Positions 6,205-60,404 are shown, counted from the first letter of the stretch. The stretch is 64,000 nucleotides of DNA from an uncultured candidatus Porisulfidus sp. (GCA_965215125.1 OZ244052.1:544001-608000); one strand, 5' to 3'. Notes: generated by a model from the letters alone, not told the origin. Numbers and translations: made by a program.

Positions 6205-6337
6205 TCCGTAGGGGGCATATCATTCCCTTCCTTGTAGATAGTATGGATGACCAGCTTTGCTGAAAGTTGGTTAAACTTTCATTTTAGTTCCCTTCTTAAG
6301 AGGGGTTTAATTAACCACTAAACAAAGGAGGTCATCC

Positions 6338-7486
6338 ATGACTAGTATACTGTATGTTGGCATTGATGTTGATGATAAGAGTTTCACTGCCACAGCCATT
6401 TCTAAACACAATAATTATCATTCCATTAAAACGCGTCCGGACTTTGCATCACTGCATAAGGCAATCACCAAAGTCGCTTTGCCGTATGAACAGATTAGGG
6501 TCTGTTATGAAGCAAGCTATTTAGGCTTTTCGTTAAAGCGACAATTTGATGCGCTGGGCATTCACTGCGATGTGATTGCGCCGTCGCTGATCCCGGTGCG
6601 TCCCTCGGATCGTATCAAGACCGATCGCCTAGATAGCGTCAAGCTGGCTGAATACTACCGACAAGGTATGTTGAAAATCGTCCACGATATTGATACTGAG
6701 ACCGAAGGTCACCGACAACTCATTCGTGGACACCAACAAGTGGTCAACACCTGCAAGATCTATAAACTGCAGATTTTGTCGTCGTGCCGTTATCGCGGGA
6801 TTAGTTATCGCACCAGTATGCAGGCCAAGAGCTATTGGACGAAGCAGCACATGGCATTCTTAAAGCGGCTCCTAGTCGACGACAGTTTAGATAAGTATTT
6901 CCGCCTCGATTTAGAGAACAAGTTATATCTATTGGAGACGCAACAAGGGGTTATCAGACGCTATGAGAACGATATACATCAGTTAGCGATATCCGAGCCG
7001 TATCGTCGGGCGGTCGGCTATTTATGTTGTATCAGAGGCATTGCCGAGTTGATTGCGATGACGCTGATTGTTGAGATTGGCGACATCGGTCGGTTTGTCA
7101 AGGCGCGTCATCTGGCCGGTTATGCCGGCTTCAGTATCAGTGAGTATAGTTCCGGTGGCAAGAGTCGCAAAGGGGGTATTACCGGGATGGGCAACAAATA
7201 CATCCGCACGGTGTGCGTGGAAGCCTGCCAGTTGGCGGGTAGACGCTATAGCGTGAATAAGGCATTGCGTGCCCGACGCGCCGACCAAGACCTAGTGGCT
7301 ATAGAGATAGGCGACCGTTGCATGAAGCGTTTGTATAAGAAGTATCAGACGATGTATCATGCCAACAAACCGTTCAACAAGATTAAGGTGGCGTGTGCCA
7401 GAGAGCTACTCGGTTTTGTGTGGGAAGCCTTGCGTGCTGCCCAGGCCGCTGAAAACGCATTGCACGCCGCACCGGTGGTTGAGTAA
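6338..7486 (+). CDS. IS110 family DEDD recombinase/transposase
   Basis: VGIDV, CYEAS, KTDRLD (DEDD) and C-terminal YAG...SSGG serine motif; RBS AAGGAGG. Confidence 0.95.
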   Translation: MTSILYVGIDVDDKSFTATAISKHNNYHSIKTRPDFASLHKAITKVALPYEQIRVCYEASYLGFSLKRQFDALGIHCDVIAPSLIPVRPSDRIKTDRLDSVKLAEYYRQGMLKIVHDIDTETEGHRQLIRGHQQVVNTCKIYKLQILSSCRYRGISYRTSMQAKSYWTKQHMAFLKRLLVDDSLDKYFRLDLENKLYLLETQQGVIRRYENDIHQLAISEPYRRAVGYLCCIRGIAELIAMTLIVEIGDIGRFVKARHLAGYAGFSISEYSSGGKSRKGGITGMGNKYIRTVCVEACQLAGRRYSVNKALRARRADQDLVAIEIGDRCMKRLYKKYQTMYHANKPFNKIKVACARELLGFVWEALRAAQAAENALHAAPVVE

Positions 7487-7979
7487 GCTCGTTAAGCAAG
7501 AGGCTGCCAGATAGAGTTCTGAGAGACCGAGGGAGTTGAAGCTAAAGTCAATGACAAGTTCCGAACTTAGATGCCGTCCTAGAGTATCTGCCCATAGAAA
7601 ACTGCCAGGCGTGATGCGTGGTAGGGCAACTGACCGTAGATTAAGGGGCACAGTTCATCCAATTAACTTATCATGTGGTAATGCGAAAGCAAAGTACACG
7701 AATATGAGGTTGATAATACCGAACGACTCATTAGTTGAGTACTTTAGCGGTGCTTCGCTCTGTCTCTCTTCGGTACAGCATGATGCCGTTAACAAGGAGA
7801 TAAAGCAGGTGCACGAAAGCCGCCACGACAAGTGGCGCATACACATACCTGATGCATGCTTTAAGAGGGGTGGCGCATTGCTATCGCTCGCTCCTTGTTG
7901 GCATCATCTGTGCCGTCATTTAACCCTTGAGTTCTGGTGACTTTTGGGAATGTAGACTTCGGTAAAAATTTAACTTGAC
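7487..7979 (+). ncRNA. Putative bridge/seek RNA region of IS110-A
   Basis: Structured non-coding right end with matches to the target (ATCTGCCC, 7586-93) and to the donor junction (ATATGAG, 7702-08); RNA boundaries unknown. Confidence 0.6.
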
Positions 7980-8201
7980 AAGCTGGTCATCCATATGAGG
8001 GGCAGATTTGCATGTCTGCCCTTAGGGTAGCAGGCGCAACCTGACGGAGTGATCACAGAGAGGGGCTGTTGAAAAAGTATCGTCATTACACAATCCAACC
8101 ACTTTGGACTTATAAGAACAGACCCTACTTGTCCGACCTACATACCCGTATTAAGACTCTGTAAAACGTTACGCAGATTAACCTACTGGCTTAATCGGCG
8201 G

Positions 8202-9170
8202 TCATCTCTTTAGCTTTTTAATTTCAGCGACAGATAAACCTGTGACTTCGGAAATCAACGAAACCTCCAGACCCTTTTGCAACATATTTAAGGCGATTTC
8301 GTGCATGCCTTGAACTCGGCCTTCCTCCATGCCCTGAACTCGGCCTTGCTCCATGCCTTTTGCCAGACCTTCCTTTAACGCACCGCGCCTTTCCAGTTGA
8401 ATCCCTATCTCATACTTCATGCGATCTATAGTCTCCCAGTGTGATTCTTTGTTTTTTGATATCTCCTCTAAATGTTCTAATATCATTTTCGTCTCTCCGT
8501 CTTGTGATAAATACGCTACTTGCTCGGGTGTCAATTCCGCCGAGTGCTTAATAATATAGCACCACCTATCCTTCATATCAACAAGGTCGCGGTAGCTCTT
8601 CTTGAACTTATTCAATTCCACTATGACGATCTTTGCACCGATATCGAAATGGTATTCTATCTCGTTGCGGTCTACAAATCCTATTTCAGTGATAAAGTTG
8701 TGCTTTCCTTTGAATACCGTGAACCGGGTAAATCCCAACGAGTAGGTCGGATTGAGGTTTGCATAGTCATCGCCACGGTTTAGGTCTTGAATAAACAGCA
8801 AAGCCCAATAGGCGAACATTCTAAGTAGGAAGTTTTTTTGGAAGGCGACTTGCATTTCTATATTGACATTTTCTCCGCCACTTAATTTGACGCTGAGGTC
8901 GAGGACGACCTGCTTGCCGTGTGGTTTAGTCGGTGGAATGGAGGTGTCTTTGAACCGTAGTTTATCACTTGATTGCTGCTGCTGTTGTTCGGCTGCTTTT
9001 TTAGAGGTGGCAGAAGTTTTGAGGTTTAGGACATCGACATCCGAGACATTATCGGAGATTGGCAAGAAGCTCTTAATGAGCGACAGCAGTAATCGCTTGT
9101 TGCCGGTAAAGTATCGTTTGAAGGCAATGTCTTTTGTCAGCGGTAAATATTTAGGTTGTTTTTTTGCCAT
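8202..9170 (-). CDS. Rpn family PD-(D/E)XK nuclease (PDDEXK_2-like)
   Basis: D.AFKR.F, LDL..NIEMQ motifs; C-terminal GM.QGR repeats and IA.NML..G....ISEVTGLS tail. Confidence 0.9.
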   Translation of the reverse strand: MAKKQPKYLPLTKDIAFKRYFTGNKRLLLSLIKSFLPISDNVSDVDVLNLKTSATSKKAAEQQQQQSSDKLRFKDTSIPPTKPHGKQVVLDLSVKLSGGENVNIEMQVAFQKNFLLRMFAYWALLFIQDLNRGDDYANLNPTYSLGFTRFTVFKGKHNFITEIGFVDRNEIEYHFDIGAKIVIVELNKFKKSYRDLVDMKDRWCYIIKHSAELTPEQVAYLSQDGETKMILEHLEEISKNKESHWETIDRMKYEIGIQLERRGALKEGLAKGMEQGRVQGMEEGRVQGMHEIALNMLQKGLEVSLISEVTGLSVAEIKKLKR

Positions 9171-9354
9171 GAAATCTCCTGTAAATTTTAGTTAAAACCT
9201 ATAATTTGAGAGAATATTCGGGATGTTTTTAGACAAACGGATGAACAGTAGTAAATATCCGATAAATGGTATGAAATGTTGGGAAATAGTCTGTTTGGGC
9301 GGATTATTTCTTTTCTTGGGAAGCAATGATGGTTTGCGTAATCAGTGGCGCAAG

Positions 9355-9515
9355 GGGTGGTCGTGTCTGTACGAGTACGGTGTCGGTACATTCCCCTCCT
9401 TCGGAGGGGTGGCAGACGCAGCCTGACTGGGTGGTCGTGGAAAATCTGCACAAGTATAGTGCTAGTACATTCCCCTCCTTCGGAGGGGTGGCAGACGCAG
9501 CCTGACGGGATGGTT
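9355..9515 (+). repeat. Two tandem REP-like units
   Basis: GTACATTCCCCTCCTTCGGAGGGGTGGCAGACGCAGCCTGAC occurs twice. Confidence 0.9.
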
Positions 9516-9651
9516 CATAACCGTTTTCGCCACAACTTATTGAAAACCACCTATGCTTTCATTAAACTATCAAACAAAAACAACAACGGCATTACCGTAT
9601 GAAAATTGTGTCGGAAATACCGTATCAAGGCACACCAAAAGGAATTTAATT

Positions 9652-11112
9652 ATGGAATTGGGAAAACTGGATAATATTTTGAAAAATTTTTATAGCTTAA
9701 GTAAACGACTTACATGCCGTTTAGTGAAATATGCAATTAGGCTTTATGGCTCGAGTAAGCAACGCATATGTTCTTTAGTGAAAAAGACAATTAGATTTTA
9801 TAGTTCATTGAAACTTGATGATCGCTTCATTGTGATTATCATAGCCTGTTTAGCATTGGCTTACATTATTATTGCTCTAGGTATTGATTTCATTATCGTC
9901 TTTTTAGTTCTGTTTCTCATAGCTACGGTATTCTATATAACCAATATGTTTGTTCAAGGATTGAAGAAGCAACGAGAAGAAAAGTATAAAGAGGCAATTA
10001 AAAATTACGATGATGTAATTGGAGCCTATCGATATATTTATCCCCTTCTTACAATCTTAAACTTAATTCTACGTCATCTTTACCCTAAAACTAGTCTGAG
10101 CATATCAGAAAATACAAAACATAGTGCATTAGCTAGTAAAAAAATTCAGGTATATCCAAGTGACAATCTATCTGAGCAGCGATATTCCTATATTCATGAA
10201 TTAACCCAAAACATGTTACGTAACACGAACATATTTGCTGACGCTTACAATAACAGAGGCATTGCTAAGGGAAAATTAGGAGACTATGAAGGGGAAATTG
10301 CAGACTATGATGAAGCCATTAAACTAGACCCTAAATCTGCTCTTGCTTACTATAATCGAGGTAATAGCAAAGTCACATTAGAAAAATACGAAGAAGCAAT
10401 TATGGACTACGACGAAGCCATTAAAATAGATCCCAGCCTTGCCTCTGCTTACTATAACAGAGGTAATAACAAAGCCATATTAGGAAAACACGAAGAGGCG
10501 ATTGCGGACTATGACGAAGCCATTGAACTAGGCTTGGAATTTGCTTTTTCTTACTCTAACAGAGGTATTAGCAAAGCCGCATTAGCAAAACACGAAGAAG
10601 CGATTGCGGACTACGACAAAGCCATTGAACTAGAACTGGAACTCGCTGACGCTTACTATAACAGAGGTAATAGTAAAGCCTCACTAGAAAAACATGAAGA
10701 GGCGATTGCAGACTATGACGAAGCTATTGAACTAGACCCTAAATTTGTTCTTGCTTACAATAATAGAGGTAATAGAAAAGACGCATTAGGAAAACACAAG
10801 GAGGCGATTGCGGACTACGACAAAGCCATTGAACTAAACCCTAAATCTGCTCCTGCTTACTTTAACAGAGGTAATAACAAAGCTAGATTAGGAAAACATG
10901 AAGAGGCGATTACGGACTACGACAAAGCCATTGAACTAGAACCTAAGTTTGCTCTTGCTTACAATAATAGAGGTAATAGTAAAGCCGCATTAGGAAAACA
11001 CAAAGAGGCAATCGCAGATTACGACAAAGCAATAAAGCTAGAACCGTCTAATCAGACTTATAAAGAGGCAAGACAACGAGCGCAAAAAAACTTGATAATT
11101 CCTAATCCGTAG
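9652..11112 (+). CDS. Membrane-anchored TPR protein
   Basis: ATG at 9652 with AAAGGA RBS (ORF track start 9553 lies in the shared leader); two hydrophobic helices then about 8 TPRs. Confidence 0.88.
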   Translation: MELGKLDNILKNFYSLSKRLTCRLVKYAIRLYGSSKQRICSLVKKTIRFYSSLKLDDRFIVIIIACLALAYIIIALGIDFIIVFLVLFLIATVFYITNMFVQGLKKQREEKYKEAIKNYDDVIGAYRYIYPLLTILNLILRHLYPKTSLSISENTKHSALASKKIQVYPSDNLSEQRYSYIHELTQNMLRNTNIFADAYNNRGIAKGKLGDYEGEIADYDEAIKLDPKSALAYYNRGNSKVTLEKYEEAIMDYDEAIKIDPSLASAYYNRGNNKAILGKHEEAIADYDEAIELGLEFAFSYSNRGISKAALAKHEEAIADYDKAIELELELADAYYNRGNSKASLEKHEEAIADYDEAIELDPKFVLAYNNRGNRKDALGKHKEAIADYDKAIELNPKSAPAYFNRGNNKARLGKHEEAITDYDKAIELEPKFALAYNNRGNSKAALGKHKEAIADYDKAIKLEPSNQTYKEARQRAQKNLIIPNP

Positions 11113-11120
11113 AGGCAGAT

Positions 11121-13534: not shown

Positions 13535-14455
13535 ATGAGTATTCCATCATCTAAACAACTTTGGCTTCCTGCACTAAAAATAATGAAGGATGATAAGGAA
13601 CGTCACAGAAGAGAAATCTTTGATCGTATTATTAAAGAATTCCAGTTTTCGGAAGAGGATAAAACCCAAAAGTTAGTAAGTGGTCGCTGTAAATTAGAAA
13701 ACCGCATGGCTTGGACATTATCTATCCTGAAAAATGCTAACTTGCTGAAAAATACAGCTCAAGGTTATTACAAAATTACCGAACAAGGGCAAGAAGTCTT
13801 AAAGGAAAATCCAAGCACTATCAGCATAGAAACTCTTCTCCAATACGCTCCTGCCGATAGCAAGTTTTTCTATTCTCAGAAACAAGATAAAGAATCAACT
13901 GACAACGAACCAAAACTGGACGAAGATTTAGAGACATCTCAAACACCGCTAGAACTGATAGAAGAGAACTACCAAAAGTTACAAGACTCTTTGTCGGATG
14001 AATTACTTCAGAACATTAAAAAGAAAGACCCGGACTTTTTTGAAGGTCTAGTAGTAGATTTGTTACTTGCTATGGGCTACGGCGGTTCCCGCAAAGAAGC
14101 AGGAGCAGCCATAGGCAAAAGTCATGACGGCGGTATTGACGGCATCATCAAAGAAGATAAGCTGGGACTTGATATTATTTATCTCCAAGCCAAGCGATAC
14201 GACAGCGGTTCAATCGGAGAAGGGGCAATCCGAAATTTTGTAGGCGCACTCGCTGCAAAACATGCCCAGAAAGGCATCTTTATCACGACCGCCGGCTATT
14301 CCAAAAGTGCCAGAGAATATGTTGAAAAGGTTCCGCAAAAAGTCATCTTGATTGACGGTGCCGACCTAGTGGATTTCATGATTGAAAACGATGTCGGTGT
14401 GTCGAAAGACCTCACATTTGAAATAAAAAAGATTGACCTTGATTATTTTGAATAA
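13535..14455 (+). CDS. mrr: Mrr family (type IV) restriction endonuclease
   Basis: N-terminal Mrr_N (NRMAW..L..A.L) and catalytic DGGIDG..QAKRY motif. Confidence 0.92.
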   Translation: MSIPSSKQLWLPALKIMKDDKERHRREIFDRIIKEFQFSEEDKTQKLVSGRCKLENRMAWTLSILKNANLLKNTAQGYYKITEQGQEVLKENPSTISIETLLQYAPADSKFFYSQKQDKESTDNEPKLDEDLETSQTPLELIEENYQKLQDSLSDELLQNIKKKDPDFFEGLVVDLLLAMGYGGSRKEAGAAIGKSHDGGIDGIIKEDKLGLDIIYLQAKRYDSGSIGEGAIRNFVGALAAKHAQKGIFITTAGYSKSAREYVEKVPQKVILIDGADLVDFMIENDVGVSKDLTFEIKKIDLDYFE

Positions 14456-14472
14456 TAAACAAACATCCCCCA

Positions 14473-16596
14473 ATGGAACTTTCTGATAACGAAAAGCGGG
14501 ATATTATTCAATATATTGAAGCCGGCAAGCCATTGCCGGAAAAATATCGTTGGCTCTTATTTGAAGACAAAAAACAAGTGGAGTTGGTATGGAACGGTAA
14601 GACCACGGATGTAACAAAAACGGTTCTACCATTTCAAACCATTGAGGTAGTCGATGAACCTCGTGCCGAAAAAAAGGCAGATACAAAAATGCAATTAACC
14701 CTTGATATTGATGAACGGGGGCGTCAAATCGCCGGGTGGACAAATAAGCTCATCTGGGGGGATAACAAACTTATACTTTCCAGTCTCAAAAGCGGAATGC
14801 TTCGTGAGGAAATAGAAAAAGCCGGCGGGCTTAAACTTATTTACATTGATCCACCATTTGATGTAGGGGCAGATTTCAGTATGAAATTGGAAATCGGCGA
14901 CGACGAAGATGAACTCATTAAAAAGCCTAATGTTTTGGAGGAAATTGCTTATCGCGATACATGGGGCAAGGGAGCAGATTCCTTTATTGCGATGATCTAT
15001 GAGCGATTGGTACTGATGCGTGATTTATTGGCGGAAGATGGCAGTATTTATGTGCACTGTGATTGGCGTTTGAACGCTAATATTCGATTGATTCTTGAAG
15101 ATATATTTAATGAGGAGTTTTTCCAGAGAGAAATAGTATGGTACTTTGACAATGTTTCCGGATACAAAAGCATTGCTTTGAATTGGATTAGAGATCACGA
15201 AACTATACTGTGGTTGACTAAATCCAAATCTTTCATATTTAATAAAGTGTATGGTGAGTATCCAGAAGGCTATGAAAATAAATTTAGTAATATAGACGAG
15301 AATGGTAGATATTACATGAAACGGGCTGGAAGACGACAATACCTTGACGAATTAAAAGGTAAACCATTGGGGGATGTGTGGCGTATTCCTTTTATAAATA
15401 ACATGGCAAATGAAAGAGTAGGCTACCCCACCCAAAAGCCCGAAGCTCTTCTTGAACGGATCATCAAAGCCTCTTCCAACGAAGGGGATTTAGTTGCCGA
15501 TTTTTTCTGTGGAAGCGGCACGACATTGGCGGTTGCAGAGAAACTTGGTAGAAAATGGATTGGTTCCGATCTCGGCAAGTTTGCTATTCACACTACCCGT
15601 AAACGGATGATTGGTGTGCAGCGAGAAATGAAAAGTTCGGGTAAAGATTTTCGTGCGTTTGAGATCTTAAACCTCGGCAAATACGAAAGGCAATATTATA
15701 TCGGTGCTAATCCCAATCTACGCGAAGAGCAACAGGTGAAGCAACTTGCCCAAAAAGAGGCTGATTTCATAAGGCTTATTATCAAAGCATACAAAGCTGA
15801 AAGTATAAATAATTTCAAGACATTCGTAGCCAAAAAGGCGGATCGCTTGATCGCAATCGGGCCGATTAATCTACCTGCGTCAAGACTTTTCGTAGAAACG
15901 GTGATAGACGAATGTCTGGAAAACAAAATTACCAAAGTGGATATTCTCTCTTTTGAGTTTGAGATGGGATTATTCCCGAAGATTCAGGAAGAAGCGAAAG
16001 ATAAGGGAATCAACTTAGCCCTTAAGTATATCCCTAAAGAAGTTTTTGATAAGCAAGCGGTCGAGAAAAATCAAGTGATATTTCATGATGTATCGTATAT
16101 TGAAGTGAAAGCGCATGTAAAACCACCCGCTAAGGGTAACCACGGTACTGTCGCCGTGGAACTTACCGATTTTTCTGTTTTCTATAATCAAGACTTCATA
16201 GATAATGTTGTCGAAAAATTGAAAAAGAATCAGTCTAAACTGATCGTGGAACAAGGCAACATTATAAAAATCACCAAAGACGAAGATGGCGAGGCAAAGC
16301 GTGAATTGCTAACAAAAAAATGGACCGATTGGATTGACTATTGGGCGGTAGATTTTAATTTTGAAAGCAAAGAAGAAATTGAACGTTTCAAAAATGATGA
16401 CGGAGAGATTGAAGAACGATGGACAGGTGATTACATCTTTGAAAACGAATGGCAAAGTTTTCGCACTAAAACAGATCGCTCAATTGAACTGAAAAGCACC
16501 GAATATGAATGTGAATCGGGTGAACGCAAAATTGCCGTTAAAATCGTTGATCTCTTCGGCAACGACACGATGAAAGTTATAAAGGTTACCATATAA
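14473..16596 (+). CDS. Type III-like site-specific DNA methyltransferase (Mod)
   Basis: YIDPPF motif IV, YPTQKPE, DFFCGSGTT motif I. Confidence 0.9.
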   Translation: MELSDNEKRDIIQYIEAGKPLPEKYRWLLFEDKKQVELVWNGKTTDVTKTVLPFQTIEVVDEPRAEKKADTKMQLTLDIDERGRQIAGWTNKLIWGDNKLILSSLKSGMLREEIEKAGGLKLIYIDPPFDVGADFSMKLEIGDDEDELIKKPNVLEEIAYRDTWGKGADSFIAMIYERLVLMRDLLAEDGSIYVHCDWRLNANIRLILEDIFNEEFFQREIVWYFDNVSGYKSIALNWIRDHETILWLTKSKSFIFNKVYGEYPEGYENKFSNIDENGRYYMKRAGRRQYLDELKGKPLGDVWRIPFINNMANERVGYPTQKPEALLERIIKASSNEGDLVADFFCGSGTTLAVAEKLGRKWIGSDLGKFAIHTTRKRMIGVQREMKSSGKDFRAFEILNLGKYERQYYIGANPNLREEQQVKQLAQKEADFIRLIIKAYKAESINNFKTFVAKKADRLIAIGPINLPASRLFVETVIDECLENKITKVDILSFEFEMGLFPKIQEEAKDKGINLALKYIPKEVFDKQAVEKNQVIFHDVSYIEVKAHVKPPAKGNHGTVAVELTDFSVFYNQDFIDNVVEKLKKNQSKLIVEQGNIIKITKDEDGEAKRELLTKKWTDWIDYWAVDFNFESKEEIERFKNDDGEIEERWTGDYIFENEWQSFRTKTDRSIELKSTEYECESGERKIAVKIVDLFGNDTMKVIKVTI

Positions 16597-16599
16597 GCT

Positions 16600-17352
16600 A
16601 TGATAGAGAACGAATATAAGCCACCAAAGTTTGGAGAGAAAGCCTTCCATTGTCCACATTGCGGGGTATTAGCAACTCAAACATGGAGCAATGATGAGAG
16701 TTTCCGAAAAGACTTATTTGAATGCCAGCATGATTTTTTTCTAAATTATAGGGAGAAAATAGGATGGGAGGGGCAACACTACATTCAAAGATTCCTTGAT
16801 GAAGTTGAACCAAAAATTCTAAATAATAGTAATAGACCATATTTTTTAGTGACATGCACACATTGCAACGACTTCTCCTTTTGGGTAAACGAAAAAATGG
16901 TTTATCCTTTGGTTCCTACATCTCCACCACCCCACGAAGATATGCCTGAAGATGTAAAAAAAACTTATGAAGAGGCACGGCAAGTACAACCCTTCTCAGT
17001 GAGAGCTTCCGCTGCGCTATTGCGAGTTTCACTGGAACAACTAACCGTACATCTAGGAGAAACCAAGGGCAACTTAAATACAAGAATTGCAAACTTAAAA
17101 AAGAAAGGATTGCCTTCACGGATTATTAAAAGTTTAGATATATTGAGAATATATGCAAACGAGGGAGGCGCACACGCGGGAACAATTGATTTAGAGGGTA
17201 AAGATAATGAAGATACAGTACTTAATTTATACAAACTAATAAACAACATCGTTTATCACACAATCGCCAGTGATAAAATGGTAGATGACTTATACGACGG
17301 TATTCCCGACGCTAAAAAAGAAGGCATTAAAAACAGAGATTCAAATAACTAA
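16600..17352 (+). CDS. DUF4145-like (HEPN-related) protein with N-terminal Zn finger
   Basis: CPHC and CTHC pairs; Y.EA, ASAALLR..LE, LRIYAN...H motifs. Confidence 0.75.
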   Translation: MIENEYKPPKFGEKAFHCPHCGVLATQTWSNDESFRKDLFECQHDFFLNYREKIGWEGQHYIQRFLDEVEPKILNNSNRPYFLVTCTHCNDFSFWVNEKMVYPLVPTSPPPHEDMPEDVKKTYEEARQVQPFSVRASAALLRVSLEQLTVHLGETKGNLNTRIANLKKKGLPSRIIKSLDILRIYANEGGAHAGTIDLEGKDNEDTVLNLYKLINNIVYHTIASDKMVDDLYDGIPDAKKEGIKNRDSNN

Positions 17353-17354
17353 TT

Positions 17355-20042
17355 ATGGCTTTACACAAAGACTTTCCGAAATCACCGCATGCGATAATTC
17401 CACCGGAAATGAGGTGGTCTCCCAGTGCAGAAGAATATGATAAGTTTCCCCCACTCGTTGAGAGGCTCAGAAAAGAAGTCTATGAATGGCGAAAGTGCAA
17501 TTATGAAGGAGCCAGCGATACCAGCAAATCGCTTCTGAATTGGTGGTTTGCAAACGAACATATATCGGAATCCGGCGGCCACATCAGCTATTTTCGATAT
17601 TACTTTGCGCAAAGAGAAGCTGTTGAAACGGTCATTTACTTATACGATATAGCAAAGGCTAAAGATCCTAATACCTTGATAAAGTTTAGCTCTTGGCAAG
17701 ATCTAAGCCTCGGTATGTTTTATGAAACATGGCCGCGATATGTGATTAAGATGGCAACAGGGTCGGGAAAAACCAAAGTGATAAGCCTGCTTCTAGCGTG
17801 GTCTTATTTCCATAAAACATACGAAGGAAACTCGGAACTTTCTAGAAACTTTCTTATCGTTGCCCCTAACATCATCGTCTTAGATAGATTGAGAGCAGAC
17901 TTTGAGGGACTTAAGATCTTTCATAACGACCCTATCCTGCCGGTGAACGGCTATGGTGGTAGAAATTGGCAAAGCGATTTTCAGACGACTTTGCATATAC
18001 AGGATGAACTAAATGTGGTGCAACCTTTAGGGAACATTTTTCTTACTAACATCCACAGAGTCTACTCCGGAAACAACTCGCTTCCTTCGTACGAAGACGA
18101 CGATACGACAGAGTATTTTTTAGGAGATAAGCCGGTGGCTAAAACCACAGACTCCAAGATAGATTTAGGAGACATCGTACGAGAGGTTGACGAACTTCTG
18201 GTTTTTAACGATGAAGCGCACCATATCCACGATAAAGAGTTAGTCTGGTTCCAGTCTATTCAAGATATACATAATCATCTAAAACCAAAAAATAAACTTT
18301 TATCTTTGCAGATTGATGTTACCGCTACTCCCAAACACCATAACGGGGCTATCTTTGTGCAGACCATATCCGATTACCCTTTGGTAGAAGCCATCGCCCA
18401 AAATATCGTCAAACATCCGGTGTTGCCCGATGATGGTAGTTGCAAAAAATTAATAGAAAAGAAGTCCTCAAAATACACGGAGAAATACGGAGACTATATC
18501 CATCTCGGGGTCAAAGAATGGAAAAAGGCTTACGATGCAAACCTTAAGCTAGATAAAAAGTCTATTCTTTTTGTTATGACCGATGACACAAAAAATTGCG
18601 ATGAAGTCGCCGAATATCTTGAAACCACATTTCCCCAATTAAAAGATGCCGTTCTATCAATTCATACAAAGAAAAATGGAGAAATTAGTGAAGCGCAAAC
18701 GGGCAAGAAAAAAAAGGAACTGGATAAGTTAAGAAAGCAAGCGAATGAAATTGATAAATTGGATAATCCTTATAAAGCTATTGTTTCCGTTCTAGTTTTG
18801 AAAGAAGGCTGGGATGTTAAAAATGTCACCACCATCGTGGGCTTGAGACCATATGATTCGGAAAGCAAGATACTCCCGGAACAAACCTTAGGAAGAGGAT
18901 TGAGGCTCATGTATGGAGGCAAAGATAGCGATATCAAGGAAAAAGTGAGTGTTATCGGCACCAAGAACTTTATGGAATTTGTAAAGAGTGTTGACAAAGA
19001 AGGTGTTGAACTTGAATACGAAGAGATGGGAGACGATACCCCTCCCAAAACCCCTACCATTGTAGAGGTTGATAGGGGAAATAAATCAAAGGATATAGCA
19101 AAACTGAATATAACAGTACCTGTTCTAACACCTAGAAATTACAAAAAGTACGAAGACCTATCTCTTTTGGATCCCGGGAAATTCAAGACGAAAAAACTTT
19201 CGTTGGAAAAAATGAAATCAAAAGGCAAAAGAAAAATTCATTTTAATTACATGGCAGTTAAAGAGGAGCAACCCCCTTATTCCCACACAACGATACTAGA
19301 CGACTCGGAAGTTTTGGATTACAGAAATATCATAGGTTTTTTCGCAAGTACAATTAAAAAAGAGCTAAGGTTTCCCGGTGGGTACAATGTTATATACGGG
19401 AAGGTAAAGGAATTCATACGCGATCACTTATTTGAAAAGCCCGTTGAATTAGATGATATCAACACAATCTTAAATCTATCAAAATCCGATGTCACTAGAT
19501 TCATCATTGAAACTTTTATCAGAGAAATTAATATCCTGACAATCAAACCGCGTGAACAGGTAAGCTCAAAAGATCCCTCTATTAAACTAACCGACACTAA
19601 ACCGTTTATCGTGAAAGGGAAAGAGGATATGATTATTATTCCTAAAAAAAGTGTTTTTAATAAAAGTATCGGAGATAATAATTTAGAAAAGGAATTTATA
19701 GCCTTTTTAGAAAATTGCGATGACATTATTGCGTATACCAAAAACTATATCAATATAGGTATTAATATGGACTACGTAAATAAGGACGGGGATATCAAAA
19801 ATTACTATCCGGACTTTCTCGTAAAAAAATCCGAAGATGAAGTGTATGTCGTTGAGACCAAAGGGCGTGAAGATTTGAACGACTCCTTAAAACTCAAACG
19901 TTTGAAGCAATGGTGCAAGGATATGAATAACCAAGGATACAAAGCAAAATACGGCTTTGTATTTGTAGATCAAGAAGGTTTTGAAAAATATAGACCCGTT
20001 GACTTTCAGGGCCTTATTGATACATTTAAGGAATATCAGTAA
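17355..20042 (+). CDS. Type III restriction enzyme Res subunit (SF2 helicase + nuclease)
   Basis: MATGSGKT, DEAHH, TATP, EGWDV, EQTLGRGLR, C-terminal PDF..VETKG. Confidence 0.9.
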   Translation: MALHKDFPKSPHAIIPPEMRWSPSAEEYDKFPPLVERLRKEVYEWRKCNYEGASDTSKSLLNWWFANEHISESGGHISYFRYYFAQREAVETVIYLYDIAKAKDPNTLIKFSSWQDLSLGMFYETWPRYVIKMATGSGKTKVISLLLAWSYFHKTYEGNSELSRNFLIVAPNIIVLDRLRADFEGLKIFHNDPILPVNGYGGRNWQSDFQTTLHIQDELNVVQPLGNIFLTNIHRVYSGNNSLPSYEDDDTTEYFLGDKPVAKTTDSKIDLGDIVREVDELLVFNDEAHHIHDKELVWFQSIQDIHNHLKPKNKLLSLQIDVTATPKHHNGAIFVQTISDYPLVEAIAQNIVKHPVLPDDGSCKKLIEKKSSKYTEKYGDYIHLGVKEWKKAYDANLKLDKKSILFVMTDDTKNCDEVAEYLETTFPQLKDAVLSIHTKKNGEISEAQTGKKKKELDKLRKQANEIDKLDNPYKAIVSVLVLKEGWDVKNVTTIVGLRPYDSESKILPEQTLGRGLRLMYGGKDSDIKEKVSVIGTKNFMEFVKSVDKEGVELEYEEMGDDTPPKTPTIVEVDRGNKSKDIAKLNITVPVLTPRNYKKYEDLSLLDPGKFKTKKLSLEKMKSKGKRKIHFNYMAVKEEQPPYSHTTILDDSEVLDYRNIIGFFASTIKKELRFPGGYNVIYGKVKEFIRDHLFEKPVELDDINTILNLSKSDVTRFIIETFIREINILTIKPREQVSSKDPSIKLTDTKPFIVKGKEDMIIIPKKSVFNKSIGDNNLEKEFIAFLENCDDIIAYTKNYINIGINMDYVNKDGDIKNYYPDFLVKKSEDEVYVVETKGREDLNDSLKLKRLKQWCKDMNNQGYKAKYGFVFVDQEGFEKYRPVDFQGLIDTFKEYQ

Positions 20043-20698: not shown

Positions 20699-21619
20699 CT
20701 ATTTTTTCAGCTGTTTAATCTCGGCAACGGATAAACTGGTCAATTTTGAAATCGCAGAAACTTCATAACCTTCTTTCAACATGTTCAAAGCGATTTTTCG
20801 GGCTGTGTTTTCTTCGCCTTCTTCTATCAGTTCTTGCTTTCTCAACTGAGCTTCCCACTCACGTTTCTCCCGGGATATAGCGTTCCAATACTCCCTCTGT
20901 TCTTTGGATACTTCCTCTAAATGTTCTAATGCCATCTTCGTCTCTCCATGTTGTGATAAGTAGGCTACCTGCTCGGCTGTCAACTTCGCCGAGTGCTTGA
21001 TAATATAGCACCATCTGTCGGTCATATCAAATAGTTCAAAGTGGTTCTTATTGAACCTATTCAATTCCACGAAGAACATCTTAAACCCCCAGTAAAGTGC
21101 TCTATCCTGATAGCCTTCAAAATAGATATTTGCCTTTTTTATATAATCTTTCTCTGCTTTACTAAGCGCGCTGAACTTGGTAAATATCAGTGAGTAAGTC
21201 GGATTAGTTTTGTTCAGTTTTTGTCCACGCTTTAAGGATTGAATATGTAACTTCGCCCAATAGAACAACATTCTAAACAAGAAGTATTTATGAGGATAGC
21301 CTTGCATCTCTATGTCGACATGCTCACCGCTGTTTAATTTGACATGGAGGTCTAGCACGACCTGTTTGCCATCCGGTGTGTGTGGTGGGATAGCACTGTC
21401 CTGCAGATGTAACTTATCGTCCGATTGACCGGGTTGATTGGTGGTGTCGGATGCGGTGTCTAGTATGTTGGGATTGAGTATCACCATATCCGAAGCACGA
21501 TCGGAGATCGGCAGGAAGCTCTTAAGTAGCGAGAACAATAATTGCTTATTGCTAGAGAAGTATCGCTTAAAGGAAATGTCTTCTGTCAAGTCTAAGTAGC
21601 CGAGATGTTTTTCATCCAT
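20699..21619 (-). CDS. Rpn family PD-(D/E)XK nuclease, paralog of 8202-9170
   Basis: Same motifs; ATG at 21619 chosen from AGGAG RBS and the upstream leader shared with the paralog. Confidence 0.9.
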   Translation of the reverse strand: MDEKHLGYLDLTEDISFKRYFSSNKQLLFSLLKSFLPISDRASDMVILNPNILDTASDTTNQPGQSDDKLHLQDSAIPPHTPDGKQVVLDLHVKLNSGEHVDIEMQGYPHKYFLFRMLFYWAKLHIQSLKRGQKLNKTNPTYSLIFTKFSALSKAEKDYIKKANIYFEGYQDRALYWGFKMFFVELNRFNKNHFELFDMTDRWCYIIKHSAKLTAEQVAYLSQHGETKMALEHLEEVSKEQREYWNAISREKREWEAQLRKQELIEEGEENTARKIALNMLKEGYEVSAISKLTSLSVAEIKQLKK

Positions 21620-21782
21620 AGTAAATCTCCTATAAATTGAGTGTAAAACATCTACCATAAAGCCGGTATTGGGTGCGATGAGAGACAAATGGATGAACGG
21701 TAGTAAATAAGGGTTGAACGGTATGTTAGGGTGATGTGAGGCGGCTGAGTCGCTGCTTGTTGCAGTTGTGCAGACTCTTATC

Positions 21783-40479: not shown

Positions 40480-41513
40480 GGGGATGTACGATGCCATGAC
40501 ATATTGGACAAATGGGGGCAAAAGGAAGCGAGCTGTTGTGCCGGTGTTTTATAGGCTAGACTTTGGTGCGGTCTCCTGAAGTTATACCGCCCGAGATATT
40601 CAAATAATACATCGTTAAATCGTCCTAAATCGGTCACTAAAATATCCTCATGATGTGCTACAAACTCCTCCTGAATGGTGCGGTTAAATCTCTCGTCTAC
40701 GGCATTCATTTTCGGGCAACGAGGATAAGTATAACAGTGTTTAATGTTGTGTTGTTGTAGATAAGCCTCGAAGTCGCCGGCAAACTCGCTGCCGTTGTCG
40801 GTCAGTACTTGAGAGAGGTTGCCGGGGAATACCGTGTCCACCAATCTTGCGAATGTCGCAGCATTTTTACTGTGGGCACGTCGGCAGGCGACGGCAACGG
40901 CGAAACGGCTGTAGTGGTCAATCGCAGTGAACAGATAATAGCGTGTCCGATCAACGAAATAATGGATGGTATCCATAGCCACGCAGTGTCCGGGAAATTG
41001 CGCTTTGGCATCTTTGCCGAGACGGTTGCGTGGTTGAGAAACCTTACGTTTGTGTGTTTTCTTAGAGGGCGAACAACGCATGTTGTCCGATGCATCGGCA
41101 ATCAACCGAGCAATGGTGCGAGGCTTCGGACACTGCAGTTCCCGTGCATCACACCACGGCTTTAAGAAGTAGTAAATCTTCGGCGCACCCATATTCGGAT
41201 AGCTGTGTCGCAGTCGCCTAATCTCATCACTGATGTGAGTAGACCAATTACGGCGACGACGCTGCCGAGGTGCTTTACTTGCGTCTCGCAAAGCGGATAC
41301 ACCGCCCTCGTCAAAGCACTTTTTCCAGCGGTATAGGGTGGAACGGCTCACCCCGACAAAGTCTTGGGTTGCGTTTAAGCCGTGTTTGTTCCAAAATTCT
41401 AGTGCATTAAGTTTTTGTTTGGCATCTGTTGCCATCATAGCCTCCGTTTTGTTGGAAAAAGAGGCTATTTTATAAAAACCTGTAATGCGGTAGCCGATGT
41501 GCTGGTTTTGCAT
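40452..41513 (-). CDS. IS481-like DDE (rve) transposase
   Basis: HTH VSRSTLYRWK; DT, TDNGSEF, ERFNRT; reads through the element end into host DNA. Confidence 0.9.
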   Translation of the reverse strand: MQNQHIGYRITGFYKIASFSNKTEAMMATDAKQKLNALEFWNKHGLNATQDFVGVSRSTLYRWKKCFDEGGVSALRDASKAPRQRRRRNWSTHISDEIRRLRHSYPNMGAPKIYYFLKPWCDARELQCPKPRTIARLIADASDNMRCSPSKKTHKRKVSQPRNRLGKDAKAQFPGHCVAMDTIHYFVDRTRYYLFTAIDHYSRFAVAVACRRAHSKNAATFARLVDTVFPGNLSQVLTDNGSEFAGDFEAYLQQHNIKHCYTYPRCPKMNAVDERFNRTIQEEFVAHHEDILVTDLGRFNDVLFEYLGRYNFRRPHQSLAYKTPAQQLASFCPHLSNMSWHRTSPCTFFHFLL

Positions 41514-41616
41514 GTCGGCTACTTTGATTTAAGAGGTATTTTTCCACTAGGAAAAGTACTTTTCCTAGTGGAAAGATTAGGTTCTAAAGAGTCCAATATG
41601 TATCTGGCATTGTACA
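40485..41616 (-). mobile_element. IS481-family element
   Basis: TGT...ACA termini with ~25-bp imperfect IR (TGTACGATGCCATGACATATTGGAC / TGTACAATGCCAGATACATATTGGAC); 5-bp direct repeat GGGGA (40480-84, 41617-21). Confidence 0.85.
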
Positions 41617-41780
41617 GGGGAACCTTGATTTTTTGTCAACCTCAAGCGGTAATACCTCGTCCGTCCTGCAGCGTGTCTCCTCCGACTTCCTAGGCACTGC
41701 ATCTGACCTTACCCCCCAAAACTGGGCCATGACAAAGATGAGATTTCCAGTTAAATTAGTAAACAACAGGAGGTTTCAAA

Positions 41781-46647: not shown

Positions 46648-46733
46648 TGCCGATTGACCTATCGGGCACACATGCGAGTCTGCCCCTACAAGCTCAATCG
46701 GCGGCTCTATTTTGCCCCTACAAGGAGGGGAAT
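46648..46733 (-). repeat. REP mosaic containing an uninterrupted GTAG hairpin
   Basis: Reverse complement of 46664-46692 is CTTGTAGGGGCAGACTCGCATGTGTGCCC. Confidence 0.82.
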
Positions 46734-53934: not shown

Positions 53935-53973
53935 AATGATGAGAATTATATACCTAAATCCGCTCTAAAGGGT

Positions 53974-54030: not shown

Positions 54031-54042
54031 TACGGGTGTTTA

Positions 54043-56825: not shown

Positions 56826-56830
56826 CGTGC

Positions 56831-57289
56831 TTATTCGTCGTCGCTTATGTTAAGGGCAGCACGAATCATCTCTTCCGAATAACCGCGTTGCCAAAGAAAT
56901 CGCCGCTGTTTAGCAAGTTCCCGAGCATTGCCGGGTTTTTGAGGAAATTTCTTCCGCAGACAAATTCGTGCATTGTGTTGCCAATCGGTATCCGACTCTG
57001 CAAGCATCTGCTCGACGCTTTCGGGATTAAGTTTTTTCTGTAGCAATTCCATTTTGATACGCATAGGACCGTAGAGCCTGTTGATGCGAGAAGTGATAAA
57101 GGATTCTATATAACGCATATCCGAAAGTAAGCCTTCGGCTTCCAGACGATCCAGTACGGCCTCTACGCTAGCTTCATTATATGCTTTGCTCCTAGACAGC
57201 TTGGATTTTAATTCTGCCCTATGGTGCTCTCGCCGGCTTAAATAAGATAGTGCTTTTTTAACTAAGGCAGCCTCGTCGTCCGCCATCAA
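56831..57289 (-). CDS. recX: Regulatory protein RecX
   Basis: LSRREH..EL..KL, YGP.RI..EL, RFL.QRG; follows recA. Confidence 0.92.
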
Positions 57290-58371
57290 GCTGTAGAACC
57301 GGCGGTGGTTTTCTTAGAGGGTTCGCCGTTTGTTTTGTCTGCCTTTTCGTCCGTCTCTTTTTCGGCTTCATTCGCCGGTGTATCGCTCAATAGCAGAGTA
57401 CGCAGATTTTTTTCAAGCTCTTCCGCCACTTTAGGGTTCTCTTTTAAGTACATACGCACATTATCCTTGCCTTGTCCTATTTTCTCGTTCTTATAACTAT
57501 ACCAAGAACCCAATTTCTCGACCAAATTATGTTTCACACCCAAATCGATTAACTCGGCATCGTGCGAAATACCCTCTCCGTATCTGATCTCAAAAGTAGC
57601 AACCTTGAACGGCGGTGCCAATTTGTTCTTCACGACTTTAACGCGGGTCTCGTTGCCTACGACCTCGTCGCCTTTTTTGATCTGCCCGGTGCGCCGTATA
57701 TCCAAACGCATTGAAGAATAAAACTTTAATGCATTGCCGCCGGTTGTCGTCTCCGGGTTTCCGAACATCACACCGATTTTCATCCGTATCTGATTGATGA
57801 AAATAACGATTGCTTTTGAGCGTTGGATATTCGCGGTCAACTTACGCAGTGCTTGCGACATTAAACGCGCCTGCAAACCGACATGGGGATCCCCCATATC
57901 GCCCTCTATCTCATTGCGAGGCGTTAATGCGGCAACCGAATCGACAACCACCAAATCAACCGAACCCGAACGTACCAACATGTCGGTGATCTCCAAGCCT
58001 TGCTCGCCGGTATCCGGTTGAGATATCAAAAAATCGTTGATATTGACACCCAACTTGCCGGCGTAGACGGAGTCCAATGCATGCTCGGCATCGACAAAAG
58101 CCGCAGTGCCACCGGCAGCTTGACATTGCGCAACCGCGTGTAATGCAAGCGTCGTTTTGCCCGAGGATTCGGTGCCGAAAATCTCTATAATCCGTCCTTT
58201 GGGAAAACCACCTATACCCAATGCCAAATCCAAAGCGAGAGATCCCGACGGTATCACTTCTATATCGTAAGTCGCCTGCGTATCACCGAGACGCATAATA
58301 GAACCCTTGCCGAACTGCTTATCAATTTGCGCTAGCGCAGTCTCTAACGCTTTTCTACGACCTTCTTCCAC
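57286..58371 (-). CDS. recA: Recombinase RecA
   Basis: [26 protein letters not shown]. Confidence 0.98.
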
Positions 58372-58603
58372 TGTTATTTCTCCTCTGATTTAATGGACTT
58401 GGCTAAGTAAAAACCAATTTTCAAGCTATTCTATACCATAAATAGGCACCTTAAAAATAAAACCGACGAAGCAACCAAAATTTGGGTATGAACTGCATCT
58501 GTAGAGATAGACCCCCCGCTCCACAAACTTCATAATATTAGACCTTAATATCGTTTATGCTATAGTGTAAACATTCTAAAAATATTGATGAAGGAAATAA
58601 ATT

Positions 58604-58837
58604 ATGAAAAAAGAGGAAATGACAATAGACGAAGTTTATAGAGAACTTAAAGACGACATTCAAGGTATGGCGACTAAGCATGACTTGAAGGTTGGCTTGG
58701 ACGAACTCCGTAATGAGTTTAAGGCAGATATGTCAAAGATGCGTACTTGGGTTATTAGCTTGTTTATCGGTGCGGTAGTCATCATGGGAACGCTTGTAGG
58801 AGCGTACGCCAACATGACGATCGCGCTACTCAAATAG
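58604..58837 (+). CDS. Small coiled-coil protein with C-terminal TM (ATK.DL motif, DUF1640/Bdr-like)
   Basis: AAGGA RBS; MATKHDL, heptad pattern, hydrophobic C-terminus. Confidence 0.7.
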   Translation: MKKEEMTIDEVYRELKDDIQGMATKHDLKVGLDELRNEFKADMSKMRTWVISLFIGAVVIMGTLVGAYANMTIALLK

Positions 58838-59059
58838 GATTGCTAAAAAATACTCCATGAAAAATACCTCATAAAATTGTAGAGCAGACATACTGGGCTG
58901 TTGAAAAAGTGCGGACATCGCACAACACCAACCGTCCTGCGCCAACAAATAATGGTTTCCATAAATTGGATGAATAAATGTATAAATCATGCAGATACGA
59001 AACAACCACCCCGTCAGGCTTCGCCTGCCACCCTAAGGGCGGACAGATATATTAAACCC

Positions 59060-59260
59060 TGGCTTATTTGATATAAGATAAACGCTTAGGCAGATGCAGT
59101 GCCTAGGAAGTCGGAGGAGACACGCTGCAGGACGGACGAGGCATTAAAGCCTGATGGTATGAAAAGCACTCCTCCGGCGTTATGACTATAGAGCTCGAAA
59201 GGCAGCTTGGGACTTTAGATCTCGTATTCATCTGTTTGGGCGGCGTAGTCATACTTTCCT
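59060..59260 (+). ncRNA. Putative bridge RNA of IS110-B
   Basis: Two stem-closed internal loops whose strands match the target and donor junctions (see findings); boundaries approximate. Confidence 0.7.
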
Positions 59261-59319
59261 AAACTGTGTTTGATACCTAGTATTTCATTCATTAACCAAC
59301 CCTTATGGAGTAATTTATT

Positions 59320-60294
59320 ATGGAAAACAAACAACCCGTCACGATTGGCGTTGATGTCTCTAAAGACACTTTAGAGGCGGCTCTATTATTCACTGATAAT
59401 AGTTTTGCCGAGCAACAATTTAGTAGTGATGCCCAAGGCATCAAACAGTTGTTAGCTTGGACGAGCAAACACCGCGCACAGCAGTGTCGCATCTGTGTTG
59501 AGGCGACCGGCGGTCTTGAACTAGACCTGTGCATGGCCGGCTATGATGCCGGGCATCCAATCATCGTGGCAGCACCGGTGCTGATCGCTAGATTCCGCGA
59601 CTCGCTCGGCATACGCAGTAAAACCGATCGCGTGGATGCGCGTATCATCGCACGCTTCGTATTTGCTATCCCGCCTGAAAACAATTGGCAAAAGCCCTCA
59701 CCGGCTGTGCAAGCTTTGCGCGACGCACTGAAATGGCGCAGGGAATTAGTCAAGTGTTGTACGATGTTAAGCAATTGCGCTAATACCCTGCGCGATGCGA
59801 AGCAAAAAAAGGTGGCAGCCACTAGCCTGAAGAACCATGAGAAGCAGATCGATAAGATTAATGCCTCAATGGACAAAATCATCGCTCAAGACGAGCACCT
59901 CACACAGCTTCACCAGTTGCTGTGTTCCATTCCTGGAATCGGAACTCAAACTGCGGCTGCCCTGTGTGCAGTACTGGATGATAATACGTTTCGCCATCCA
60001 AAGCAACTCGCCGCCTATATCGGCATCACGCCCAAGCACAAGCAATCCGGCAACTGCGCATCGCCCACGCCCATCTCTAAACAGGGCAATGCCGACCTGC
60101 GCACCCTCCTATTTATGGCAGCACTCTCGGCACGTCGGCATAACCTAACCATCCGTGCATTTGCCGACCAATTAAGTCGGCGGCGTCCGGAGTTAACTAA
60201 AAAGCAGATTATTGTTGCTTGCGCTCATAAGCTCACGCGTATTATTTATGGGGTCACCACGCACAAGCAACCGTTTGACACGAATTATTGTTGA
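59320..60294 (+). CDS. IS110 family DEDD recombinase/transposase
   Basis: IGVDVSK, CVEATG, KTDRVDA, IPGIG, KQSG. Confidence 0.95.
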   Translation: MENKQPVTIGVDVSKDTLEAALLFTDNSFAEQQFSSDAQGIKQLLAWTSKHRAQQCRICVEATGGLELDLCMAGYDAGHPIIVAAPVLIARFRDSLGIRSKTDRVDARIIARFVFAIPPENNWQKPSPAVQALRDALKWRRELVKCCTMLSNCANTLRDAKQKKVAATSLKNHEKQIDKINASMDKIIAQDEHLTQLHQLLCSIPGIGTQTAAALCAVLDDNTFRHPKQLAAYIGITPKHKQSGNCASPTPISKQGNADLRTLLFMAALSARRHNLTIRAFADQLSRRRPELTKKQIIVACAHKLTRIIYGVTTHKQPFDTNYC

Positions 60295-60404
60295 GCATTT
60301 GCGTCCTAAATCGATACTCACAAAAGGAGATAAAAAATGAATAAAACGGCTTGATTTTTAATAAGGCATCATGCAAGTCCGCCCCTACAAGGAGGGGAAT
60401 GGGG

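Follow-up and report, generated by a model that had tools for sequence, protein, structure and literature searches.

Two dissimilar transposable elements of the IS110 family, here called A and B, interrupt the same hairpin repeat at two different points in a 64,000-nt stretch of DNA (the window; G000:C1:544001-608000) from an uncultured candidatus Porisulfidus sp. We consider it probable, at about 0.85, that two independent IS110-family lineages, each using its own guide RNA, recombine into this same abundant intergenic hairpin, which resembles a repetitive extragenic palindrome (REP). The source genome (G000, 99% complete) lies on a single contig of 2,220,706 bp with 46% G+C, and was compared with three relatives of the genus, G001, G003 and G004. 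The copies of A and B in the window are two of 14 insertions in G000.

Elements A and B occupy one REP-like hairpin at different cores

Reading of the junctions placed element A between ...CCTTGT[AG] followed by ATAGTATGG on its left and ...CCATATG[AG] followed by GGGCAGATTTGCATGTCTGCCC on its right, where the second AG runs directly into GGGCAGAT of the hairpin (8000-8021). Element B is bounded by ...TAAGGGCGGA[CA] followed by GATATATT on the left, the flank being also read as ..AAGGGCGGA[CA], and by ...AAGGCAT[CA] followed by TGCAAGTCCGCCCCTAC on the right. Excision of either element with one core copy retained restored the same composite repeat, and the two restored repeats were identical at 57/68 aligned columns (ends untrimmed). 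The AG core is located at the foot of the 8-bp stem, the CA core (TG on the repeat's own strand) within the 6-nt loop; the two cores are 13 nt apart, and A and B are oriented oppositely relative to the hairpin. The shared composite repeat, the two cores with their 13-nt spacing and the opposite orientations had been claimed in a sequence-only reading of the stretch and were recovered at the junctions, as was the unoccupied hairpin copy that it had reported near 46664, which has one arm mismatch and another flank module. Coordinates of these and the other features are listed in Table 1.

Table 1. Positions of the repeat, of elements A and B and of their predicted RNA modules in the window
Feature	Position	Strand	Details	Basis
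Composite REP-like repeat, 5' part	6221-6237	+	Ends in the AG core (6236-6237) used by A	Junction reading, copy map
Hairpin and 3' part of composite repeat	8000-8047	+	Hairpin GGGCAGAT-TTGCAT-GTCTGCCC (8000-8021)	
Composite repeat, 3' part	59012-59045	-	Ends in loop core CA (plus strand 59044-59045)	
Composite repeat, 5' part	60372-60403	-	TGCAAGTCCGCCCCTACAAGGAGGGGAAT	
Free hairpin copy	46664-46686	-	One arm mismatch (GGGCACAC vs GTCTGCCC); other 3' flank module	
Element A, IS1111-type	6238-7999	+	1762 bp including one core copy (7998-7999)	
A left subterminal inverted repeat	6243-6257	+	ATGGATGACCAGCTT, 15 bp; complement at 7980-7994	
A right subterminal inverted repeat	7980-7994	+	15 bp	
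Transposase A	6338-7486	+	382 aa; DEDD_Tnp_IS110 and Transposase_20	
A 3' guide RNA, predicted	7562-7656	+	Target-binding stem/internal loop	
A candidate donor-binding module	7665-7708	+	CUUAUC (within 7665-7675) against core and left end; AUAUGAG (7702-7708) equal to right end and core	Sequence reading
Element B, IS110/IS621-type	59046-60371	+	1326 bp including one core copy (60370-60371)	
Transposase B	59320-60294	+	324 aa; DEDD_Tnp_IS110 and Transposase_20	
B bridge RNA, predicted target loop	59110-59178	+	Outer stem GUCGGAGGAG/CUCCUCCGGC; left guide AGGACGGACG (59129-59138); right guide AUGGUAUG (59154-59161)	
B bridge RNA, predicted donor loop	59181-59253	+	Outer stem UAUGACUA/UAGUCAUA; left donor guide AAGGCAGC (59199-59206); right donor guide GUAUUCAUCUG (59224-59234)	
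B right end	60351-60371	+		
B-family left-end fragment (target-loop region)	41632-41709	-	~90% identical to left-end positions 53-130	

The 22-nt hairpin had two matches in the window at no more than three mismatches, against none expected from 100 shuffles. Across the 2.22 Mb of G000, 44 hairpins fitted a strict pattern and 76 sites read TAGGGGC[AG]GA, with flanks forming a mosaic of several modules that differ between copies. The repeat is short, palindromic, extragenic and present in many copies, the three copies in the window being intergenic. It is called REP-like here because no Y1 transposase gene (RAYT, REP-associated tyrosine transposase; PF01797) was matched in G000; one of the six genomes searched has one.

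Since every copy of the elements is flanked by hairpin halves, these halves could in principle be terminal parts that the elements carry with them, and the free hairpins would then be remnants of departed elements and not targets. However, two unrelated elements interrupt this hairpin, each at a point of its own, 41 of the 44 strict hairpins do not abut a right end of A and have varied loops, the flanking modules vary from copy to copy, and an orthologous unoccupied site exists in G003 (below), so that we hold this explanation to be extremely improbable.

The transposases and non-coding ends assign A and B to different groups of the IS110 family

Both transposases exceeded the Pfam cut-offs for PF01548 and PF02371, and the D, E, D..D and SG motifs lined up in the pairwise alignment of A with B and in alignments to PDB entries. 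The two proteins are only 24% identical and the long non-coding end lies 3' of the gene in A and 5' in B, as the sequence-only reading had described. Transposase B aligned over its full length to the solved transposases of ISCro4 (E 1e-44) and IS621 (E 2e-43); transposase A showed only remote similarity to solved structures (E 5e-5). The right end of A is 512 nt long (7487-7999), contains a predicted RNA and carries, together with the left end, 15-bp subterminal inverted repeats, within the 7-17 bp given for the IS1111 group (Durrant et al. 2024, PMC11208160). Element B has the IS110-group arrangement: a long left end of 274 nt (59046-59319) with a predicted RNA, a short right end of 77 nt and no long subterminal repeat.

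The non-coding ends of both elements contain segments that fit the target. In A, the 5' side of the predicted target loop, UCUGCCC (7587-7593), is complementary to top-strand GGGCAGA, and the 3' side, ACCGUAG (7633-7639), equals top-strand ..CCGTAG; the internal loop is closed by an outer stem (GAACU../..AGUUC, UGCC/GGCA), and an apical hairpin lies between the two segments. Read from the 5' side, the top-strand match comes first and the bottom-strand match second, as was reported for seekRNAs of the IS1111 type (Siddiquee et al. 2024, PMC11187229). The putative donor segments CUUAUC and AUAUGAG flank a further hairpin and fit the joined ends of A. The 3' end folded more stably than its shuffles (z -3.98), and an A-type guide pair arose by chance in 23/5000 shuffles of it.

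In B, the minimum-free-energy fold of the 5' end gave two stem/internal-loop/stem modules, and the order of the matches is the reverse of that in A, with the bottom-strand match 5' of the top-strand match, which agrees with the IS110 type (PMC11187229). The left guide AGGACGGACG aligned with the top strand through the core (AGGGCGGACA) with one A opposite C and a G opposite T at the final core base, and the right guide AUGGUAUG pairs with CATGCC or CATATC with one wobble. On the donor side, the left donor guide AAGGCAGC matches the right end AAGGCAT-CA, and the right donor guide GUAUUCAUCUG pairs discontinuously with CA-GATATA of the left end. Chance pairs of left and right guides were found in 10/5000 shuffles of a C-type 5' end (C being a diverged relative of B, below). 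Collectively, RNA segments that can pair with both strands of target and donor were found in silico, through complementarity, loop architecture, covariation and shuffles. The claim of the sequence-only reading that two IS110-family elements share one hairpin family, each with its own fixed core and guide-like segments fitting it, is upheld.

Joining of the ends may create promoters, such as are known for the IS110 family (PMC12288879). In A, an outward TTGACA (7975-7980) would come to lie 18 nt before GATAGT and could give a junction promoter in a circle, and in B, TTGATT (60351-60356) would lie 17 nt before TATATT (59048-53), a likely junction promoter.

Two further observations concern the left end of B. 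A small hairpin, AGGCAGA-TGCA-GTGCCT (59088-59104), resembles the REP-like target without the core and is the breakpoint of one solo stub. The B-family fragment at 41632-41709 sits in an IS (insertion sequence) graveyard, between a 1141-bp rve-type IS (40485-41616) and an IS3-like orfA.

The guides vary together with their targets across the genus

For comparison of the guides, 28 elements were collected from G000, G003, G004 and G001, of which 27 were used and one was skipped since the loop pattern was not found. Among these, five 8-nt variants of the right guide fitted their own target loops, with 5.8-7.0 Watson-Crick pairs of 8 for own targets and 4.8-5.9 for the targets of other classes. 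The guide AUGGUAUG was found at CATGCC (three times), CATATC and CATGCA; GUUGCAUG and UUUGCAUG at CATGCAA (four) and CATGCCA (one); UUAGCAUG at CATGCTA (five) and CATGTTA (one); and UUAACAUG at CATGTTA (eleven). Examples are UUGCAUG with CATGCAA, UAGCAUG with CATGCTA and UAACAUG with CATGTTA. The left guide changed likewise: ..GAGGGC.. or ..GAGAGGAU.. replaces ..CGGAC.. where the stem is G[A/G]GAGGGC (G004, G001) and not GGGCGGA. On the donor side, ACCUG stands in place of AUCUG exactly in those elements whose left end begins with GGT and not GAT.

Element A has a relative in G004 that is 76% identical, with six matches. In the three inspected, UCCGCCC and CUUUAG (GGCUUUAG) replace UCUGCCC and CCGUAG, and all three lie at ..TT[AG]GGCGGA, preceded by CTTT[AG] in two and CGTT[AG] in the third; they occupy the opposite (TTTA) side of the G-type hairpin. 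The B relatives of G004 use another hairpin variant (GGGAGGGC). At G004:C2:1953169-1957917, 58 bp separate a relative of A from a relative of B; the two sit in adjacent hairpins, which are of different variants and belong to one composite repeat.

The covariation bears on the explanation that the proteins choose the target by hairpin shape and that the RNA complementarities are incidental. That the target is a strong hairpin, that the left guide of B is imperfect and that a structural contribution was reported for ISPpu10 (bioRxiv 10.64898/2026.03.19.712850) would agree with it. However, in both families a change of target goes with a change of the guide segments, chance guide pairs are rare in shuffles, and RNA guidance was shown experimentally for both groups (PMC11208160, PMC11187229); recognition by shape with incidental complementarity is very improbable in our judgement.

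Nearly all copies keep their own core, and one site is empty in a relative

Element A has five copies in G000: two uninterrupted, one truncated at position 1337, and two interrupted near position 990 by an 1820-bp element. Four of the five left ends follow ..GT[AG], and GGGCAGA comes next at three of the four surviving right ends. The B family is represented by 13 left ends, namely four B, four C, one D and four solo stubs. B copies are at least 99.7% identical, two of the four being interrupted by the 1141-bp rve-type IS; C copies have 66-70% amino-acid identity to B with nearly the same ends and 5' region; and the single D copy is degraded. Twelve of the 13 left ends stand directly after GGG[C/T][G/A][G/A]A-CA, and eight of nine right ends are followed by T[G/A][C/T][C/A]A[G/A]TC[C/T]GCCCCTAC, which is the second hairpin half; the ninth, that of D, adjoins the interior of an A copy. 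Without exception, the 2-nt core of the A copies is AG and that of the B copies CA. The expectation from the sequence-only reading that each element uses its own core in this hairpin held in 4/5 A copies, 12/13 B-family left ends and 8/9 right ends.

The flanks of copy B4 are collinear in G003, where they lie 93 bp apart, and the orthologous site is empty: it reads ..AAGGGCAGA-CA-TGCCAGTCCGCCCCTAC.., which is both G000 flanks with a single CA. This exact empty site fixes the boundaries and the core of B, and the slightly mismatched arms there must therefore predate the insertion of B4. No exact empty site was found for A at the A4 and A5 loci, where the flanks are collinear in the relatives and the repeat arrays differ or are absent; support for the AG join comes solely from an unoccupied paralogous site in G000 (1091254) and from a G003 repeat that is similar. 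The C4 locus is collinear with G003, and the repeats there differ.

Contigs from four public runs were searched over 57500-61900. A join of 59043 to 60370 (skipping 1326, with 2 ambiguous letters) was present in 4/4, its shorter side being only 19-22 letters; these joins probably come from other free hairpins and are uninformative on excision here. No circle junction was found among these contigs, a form of data that drops rare forms.

Several side observations concern the make-up of the copies and of the repeat. The 5' non-coding end of copy C1 (1999578-1998246) is B-type, with one change in the aligned 284 nt, and its transposase is only 70% identical to that of B. Lineages seem to have exchanged the guide-RNA module here; in the B family generally, the 5' ends are far more similar than the genes. 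The 1141-bp rve-type IS has seven copies identical over 1141 bp and two at ~96%, and sits at the same position in B3 (300471-297989) and B4 (763818-766300). The 1820-bp element, with ends CACCCTAATT.., is present ~6 times; two A copies carry it at an identical point, in opposite orientations, and one copy of it contains the 1141-bp IS in turn. The outer module of the composite repeat (..CCTGCCACCC / CTCCGAAGGAGGGGAATG) was also found without the central hairpin, in the G003 ortholog of the B1 locus and in the B3 flank of G000 (~300620), and one hairpin loop in G003 holds a further small repeat (GCCGATTGACCTAC..CAATCGGCGG). The repeats thus look nested and mosaic, as though the hairpin module were itself mobile.

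One hairpin is doubly occupied, with little sign of partitioning

The search for a hairpin holding both elements, which the sequence-only reading had suggested, yielded one at G000 1427343-1429722, with A at AG and D in the loop in opposite orientations. There, A lacks its last 425 nt (position 1338 to the end) and the hairpin lacks its first arm, and the right end of D with its CA is joined exactly to the A-internal sequence GGACGG[CA]TCTAAG (on D's strand), which resembles the B left guide AGGACGG. Solo left ends of the B family without a right end lie at G000:C1 521887, 670312, 1402589 and 1981291. In the stub at 521887, left-end positions 1-43 are joined directly to the right hairpin half, with a 4-nt TGCA overlap at a hairpin-like stretch inside the left end. 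The junctions at the doubly occupied hairpin and at this stub look like aberrant recombinase events, and short homologies could also explain them.

The sequence-only reading had pictured the two guide systems as partitioning one repeat family as a safe harbour, which would mean that they were selected to divide the repeat and that the non-overlapping cores represent niche partitioning in a coupled system. Neither core, 13 nt from the other, destroys the other's pairing segments, one hairpin does hold both elements, and both insertions in the window lie between convergent gene ends. However, 23 sites reading GTAGGGGCAGA and 60 reading GGGC[AG]GACAT are free in G000 versus 4 and 12 used; the sites are far from saturated and competition is therefore not evident. 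In G004, the A relative lies on the opposite side of the G-type hairpin and the B relatives on the variant given above, so that targets appear to drift independently, and in Pseudomonas putida two dissimilar IS110-family elements share the same insertion point (PMC1525189), so that separate cores are unnecessary for coexistence. Partitioning in a selected or cooperative sense is therefore disfavoured by this low occupancy and by the different sides and variants in G004, and we regard it as improbable.

Rearrangement between repeats is weakly indicated

The same reading had proposed that the elements could drive REP-to-REP rearrangement of the tetratricopeptide repeat (TPR) and defence cassettes; in a wider form, they would actively rearrange this genome by deletion or inversion, the window's TPR and restriction cassettes included. 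The idea is weakly supported by the one precise deletion at the doubly occupied hairpin, where the join falls at the look-alike of the B left guide, and the stub at 521887, joined straight to the right hairpin half, would fit it too. Synteny with the relatives was assessed by 13 locus-wise searches, of which ten could be resolved, the three others (A1, A2, A3+D) being obscured by repeated genes or missing matches. Three of the ten loci (B2, C1, C3) have flanks far apart in G003, a figure from locus-wise searches without a genome-wide breakpoint baseline, and ISPpu10 has been linked to amplifications of >100 kb (bioRxiv 10.64898/2026.03.19.712850). Against these stand the seven other loci (B1, B3, B4, C4, C2, A5, A4), which are collinear with relatives, and other synteny breaks in the same stretches that fall in repeat clusters without these elements. 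Both deletion junctions have 4-6 nt of microhomology, for which ordinary slippage or recombination would serve. The span between A and B in the window contains core genes, with a ribosomal-protein/rpoA/secY/EF-G block and recA, and the B locus is collinear in two relatives, so rearrangement of the window's cassettes is not borne out; that the elements actively rearrange this genome is unlikely on this evidence.

On either side of copy B2 (G000:C1:983500-997000) lies one of two paralogous segments in tandem; both contain a small coiled-coil-like gene preceded by the same repeat, and the outer flanks map 370 kb apart in G003.

Genes around the two insertions

Both insertions in the window are placed at convergent gene ends. 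Element A has a TPR gene on one side and a PDDEXK_2 gene on the other; element B has a small open reading frame on one side and cinA on the other. The 54 kb separating them hold TPR genes, an Mrr/methylase/ResIII cassette, the rpoA-secY-EF-Tu-EF-G block, purB, an ATP-binding cassette (ABC) system, lpxK, msbA and recA. The restriction-type cassette (13535-20042) consists of an Mrr-like nuclease, an N6_N4 DNA methylase, a DUF4145 protein and a ResIII helicase/nuclease, and is bordered by TPR genes and a PDDEXK_2 gene. PD-(D/E)XK 'transposase' (PDDEXK_2) genes lie at 8202-9170 (-) and 20699-21688 (-) and belong to a multi-copy family, with three matches at 90-92% in G003 and >12 at ~70% in G001. 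In public sequencing runs compared over 57000-62000, six with other organism labels share ~1/4 of the sampled words, which is about the proportion of element B, and two of these six contain a relative ~5% diverged in the flanks that carries a B copy ~97% alike.

Discussion

The favoured explanation is that A, as an IS1111-type element, and B with its diverged relatives C and D, as IS621-type elements, came independently to the same abundant hairpin. The 5' non-coding end of B would encode a bridge RNA; the target loop of this RNA would pair with one arm and the loop (~AGGGCGGA-CA followed by CATGCnn) and its donor loop with B's own joined ends, and the exchange would therefore fall at CA in the hairpin loop. 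The guide RNAs of both elements would have to be made and to bind their transposases, circles would form, and the junction promoters would act in these. Because the AG and CA sites do not overlap, one hairpin can hold both elements. We read the shared target as convergence, and not as a coupled system: a conserved, multi-copy, harmless sequence would suit any programmable element.

Several points weigh against this explanation. The 5' end of B folds no more stably than shuffles (z -1.41; 18/200 shuffles fold as well), and no Rfam family was matched in the window at gathering thresholds. The left guide of B is imperfect, with an A facing C once in G000 and twice in the most common class of G004, the right guide of the window copy, B1, pairs at only 6/8 positions, and the donor loop of A is a candidate only. 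Among the copies, A5 (1114598) lies at CCCT[AG]GGCATAC in a degenerate repeat with a poor guide match, and the solo left end at 670312 follows ..GAAGAG-CA, outside the hairpin, and has a different loop. The covariation consists of ~five guide classes in four related genomes, so that independent retargeting events are few. Furthermore, the target stem-loop was reported to contribute to recognition by ISPpu10 (bioRxiv 10.64898/2026.03.19.712850), and base pairing may for this reason not be the whole story.

A joint reading would have the hairpin and both element families co-diversify across the genus, with B guide classes tracking loop and stem variants and A guides flipping palindrome sides, and would have the elements interfere, a B-family recombinase perhaps deleting the whole guide-RNA region of A through the A-internal target look-alike at the doubly occupied hairpin. 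We consider this doubtful; if true, the event would be a natural bridge-RNA-guided off-target deletion, in which one guided element disables another.

Guided recombinases can be studied here in a natural setting: a small genome and its three sisters contain two element families, ~five right-guide classes and two variants of the hairpin, to which are added one exact empty site, one hairpin with both elements and several junctions of aberrant form. The case mirrors in nature the bench results that few guide changes suffice for retargeting and that wobble and some mismatches are tolerated, and it may yield new recombinase/RNA pairs of both types (IS1111 and IS110) that are compact and differ in their cores (AG, CA). 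Knowledge of how these elements choose REPs is unchanged by it.

That IS110-family elements target REPs has been on record since 2006, with the dissimilar ISPpu9 and ISPpu10 of Pseudomonas putida KT2440 among them (Tobes & Pareja 2006, PMC1525189; NAR 2025, PMC12288879), so that convergence of dissimilar elements of this family on one REP is already known. Every copy of either was reported to lie within a single REP family and to have a duplicated core of 2 bp; the REP was read as a safe target (PMC1525189, PMC12288879). RNA guidance, the 5' or 3' position of the RNA by group and natural covariation of guide and target have likewise been described (PMC11208160, PMC11187229). Our literature search, which was not built to exclude such a case, brought up no report of one hairpin with an IS1111-type element at one core and an IS110-type element at another, and the supplementary target tables of PMC11208160 and PMC11187229 may list similar hairpins.

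The present pair is like ISPpu9/ISPpu10 in that two dissimilar IS110-family elements of one genome co-occupy one REP family. It differs in that ISPpu9 and ISPpu10 share one insertion point, between bases 9 and 10 of the REP (PMC1525189), whereas here the insertion points are 13 nt apart and the elements oppositely oriented, and in that both Pseudomonas elements are described with upstream RNAs, whereas one element here is IS1111-type with a predicted 3' guide. ISPpu10, for which a 'sequence-structure dual match' was described, is likewise an IS110 element with a GC-rich stem-loop in its target, and its copies mark large rearrangements (bioRxiv 10.64898/2026.03.19.712850).

Element B resembles IS621 and ISCro4 (PMC11208160; PDB 8wt6, 9t56) in its transposase, similar over the full length, and in its long left and short right ends, and IS621 in its two internal loops, in a left guide equal to the top strand with a right guide complementary to it, in a discontinuous right donor guide and in a likely junction promoter. 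Unlike them, B has CA and not CT as its core, targets a loop and one hairpin arm, has a left guide with an A opposite C, and is known from sequence alone. Element A resembles ISEc11, ISPa11 and ISKpn4 (PMC11187229) in its subterminal inverted repeats, its downstream non-coding region and its guide order, and ISPa11 also occupies a REP (PMC1525189); unlike in these, its transposase is only remotely similar to any solved one and its 3' end is long. What sets the present case apart from the published ones is that one hairpin is shared by elements of the IS1111 and IS110 types, which face opposite ways at two cores (AG, CA), together with a doubly occupied copy and a small genus-level series of retargeted guides.

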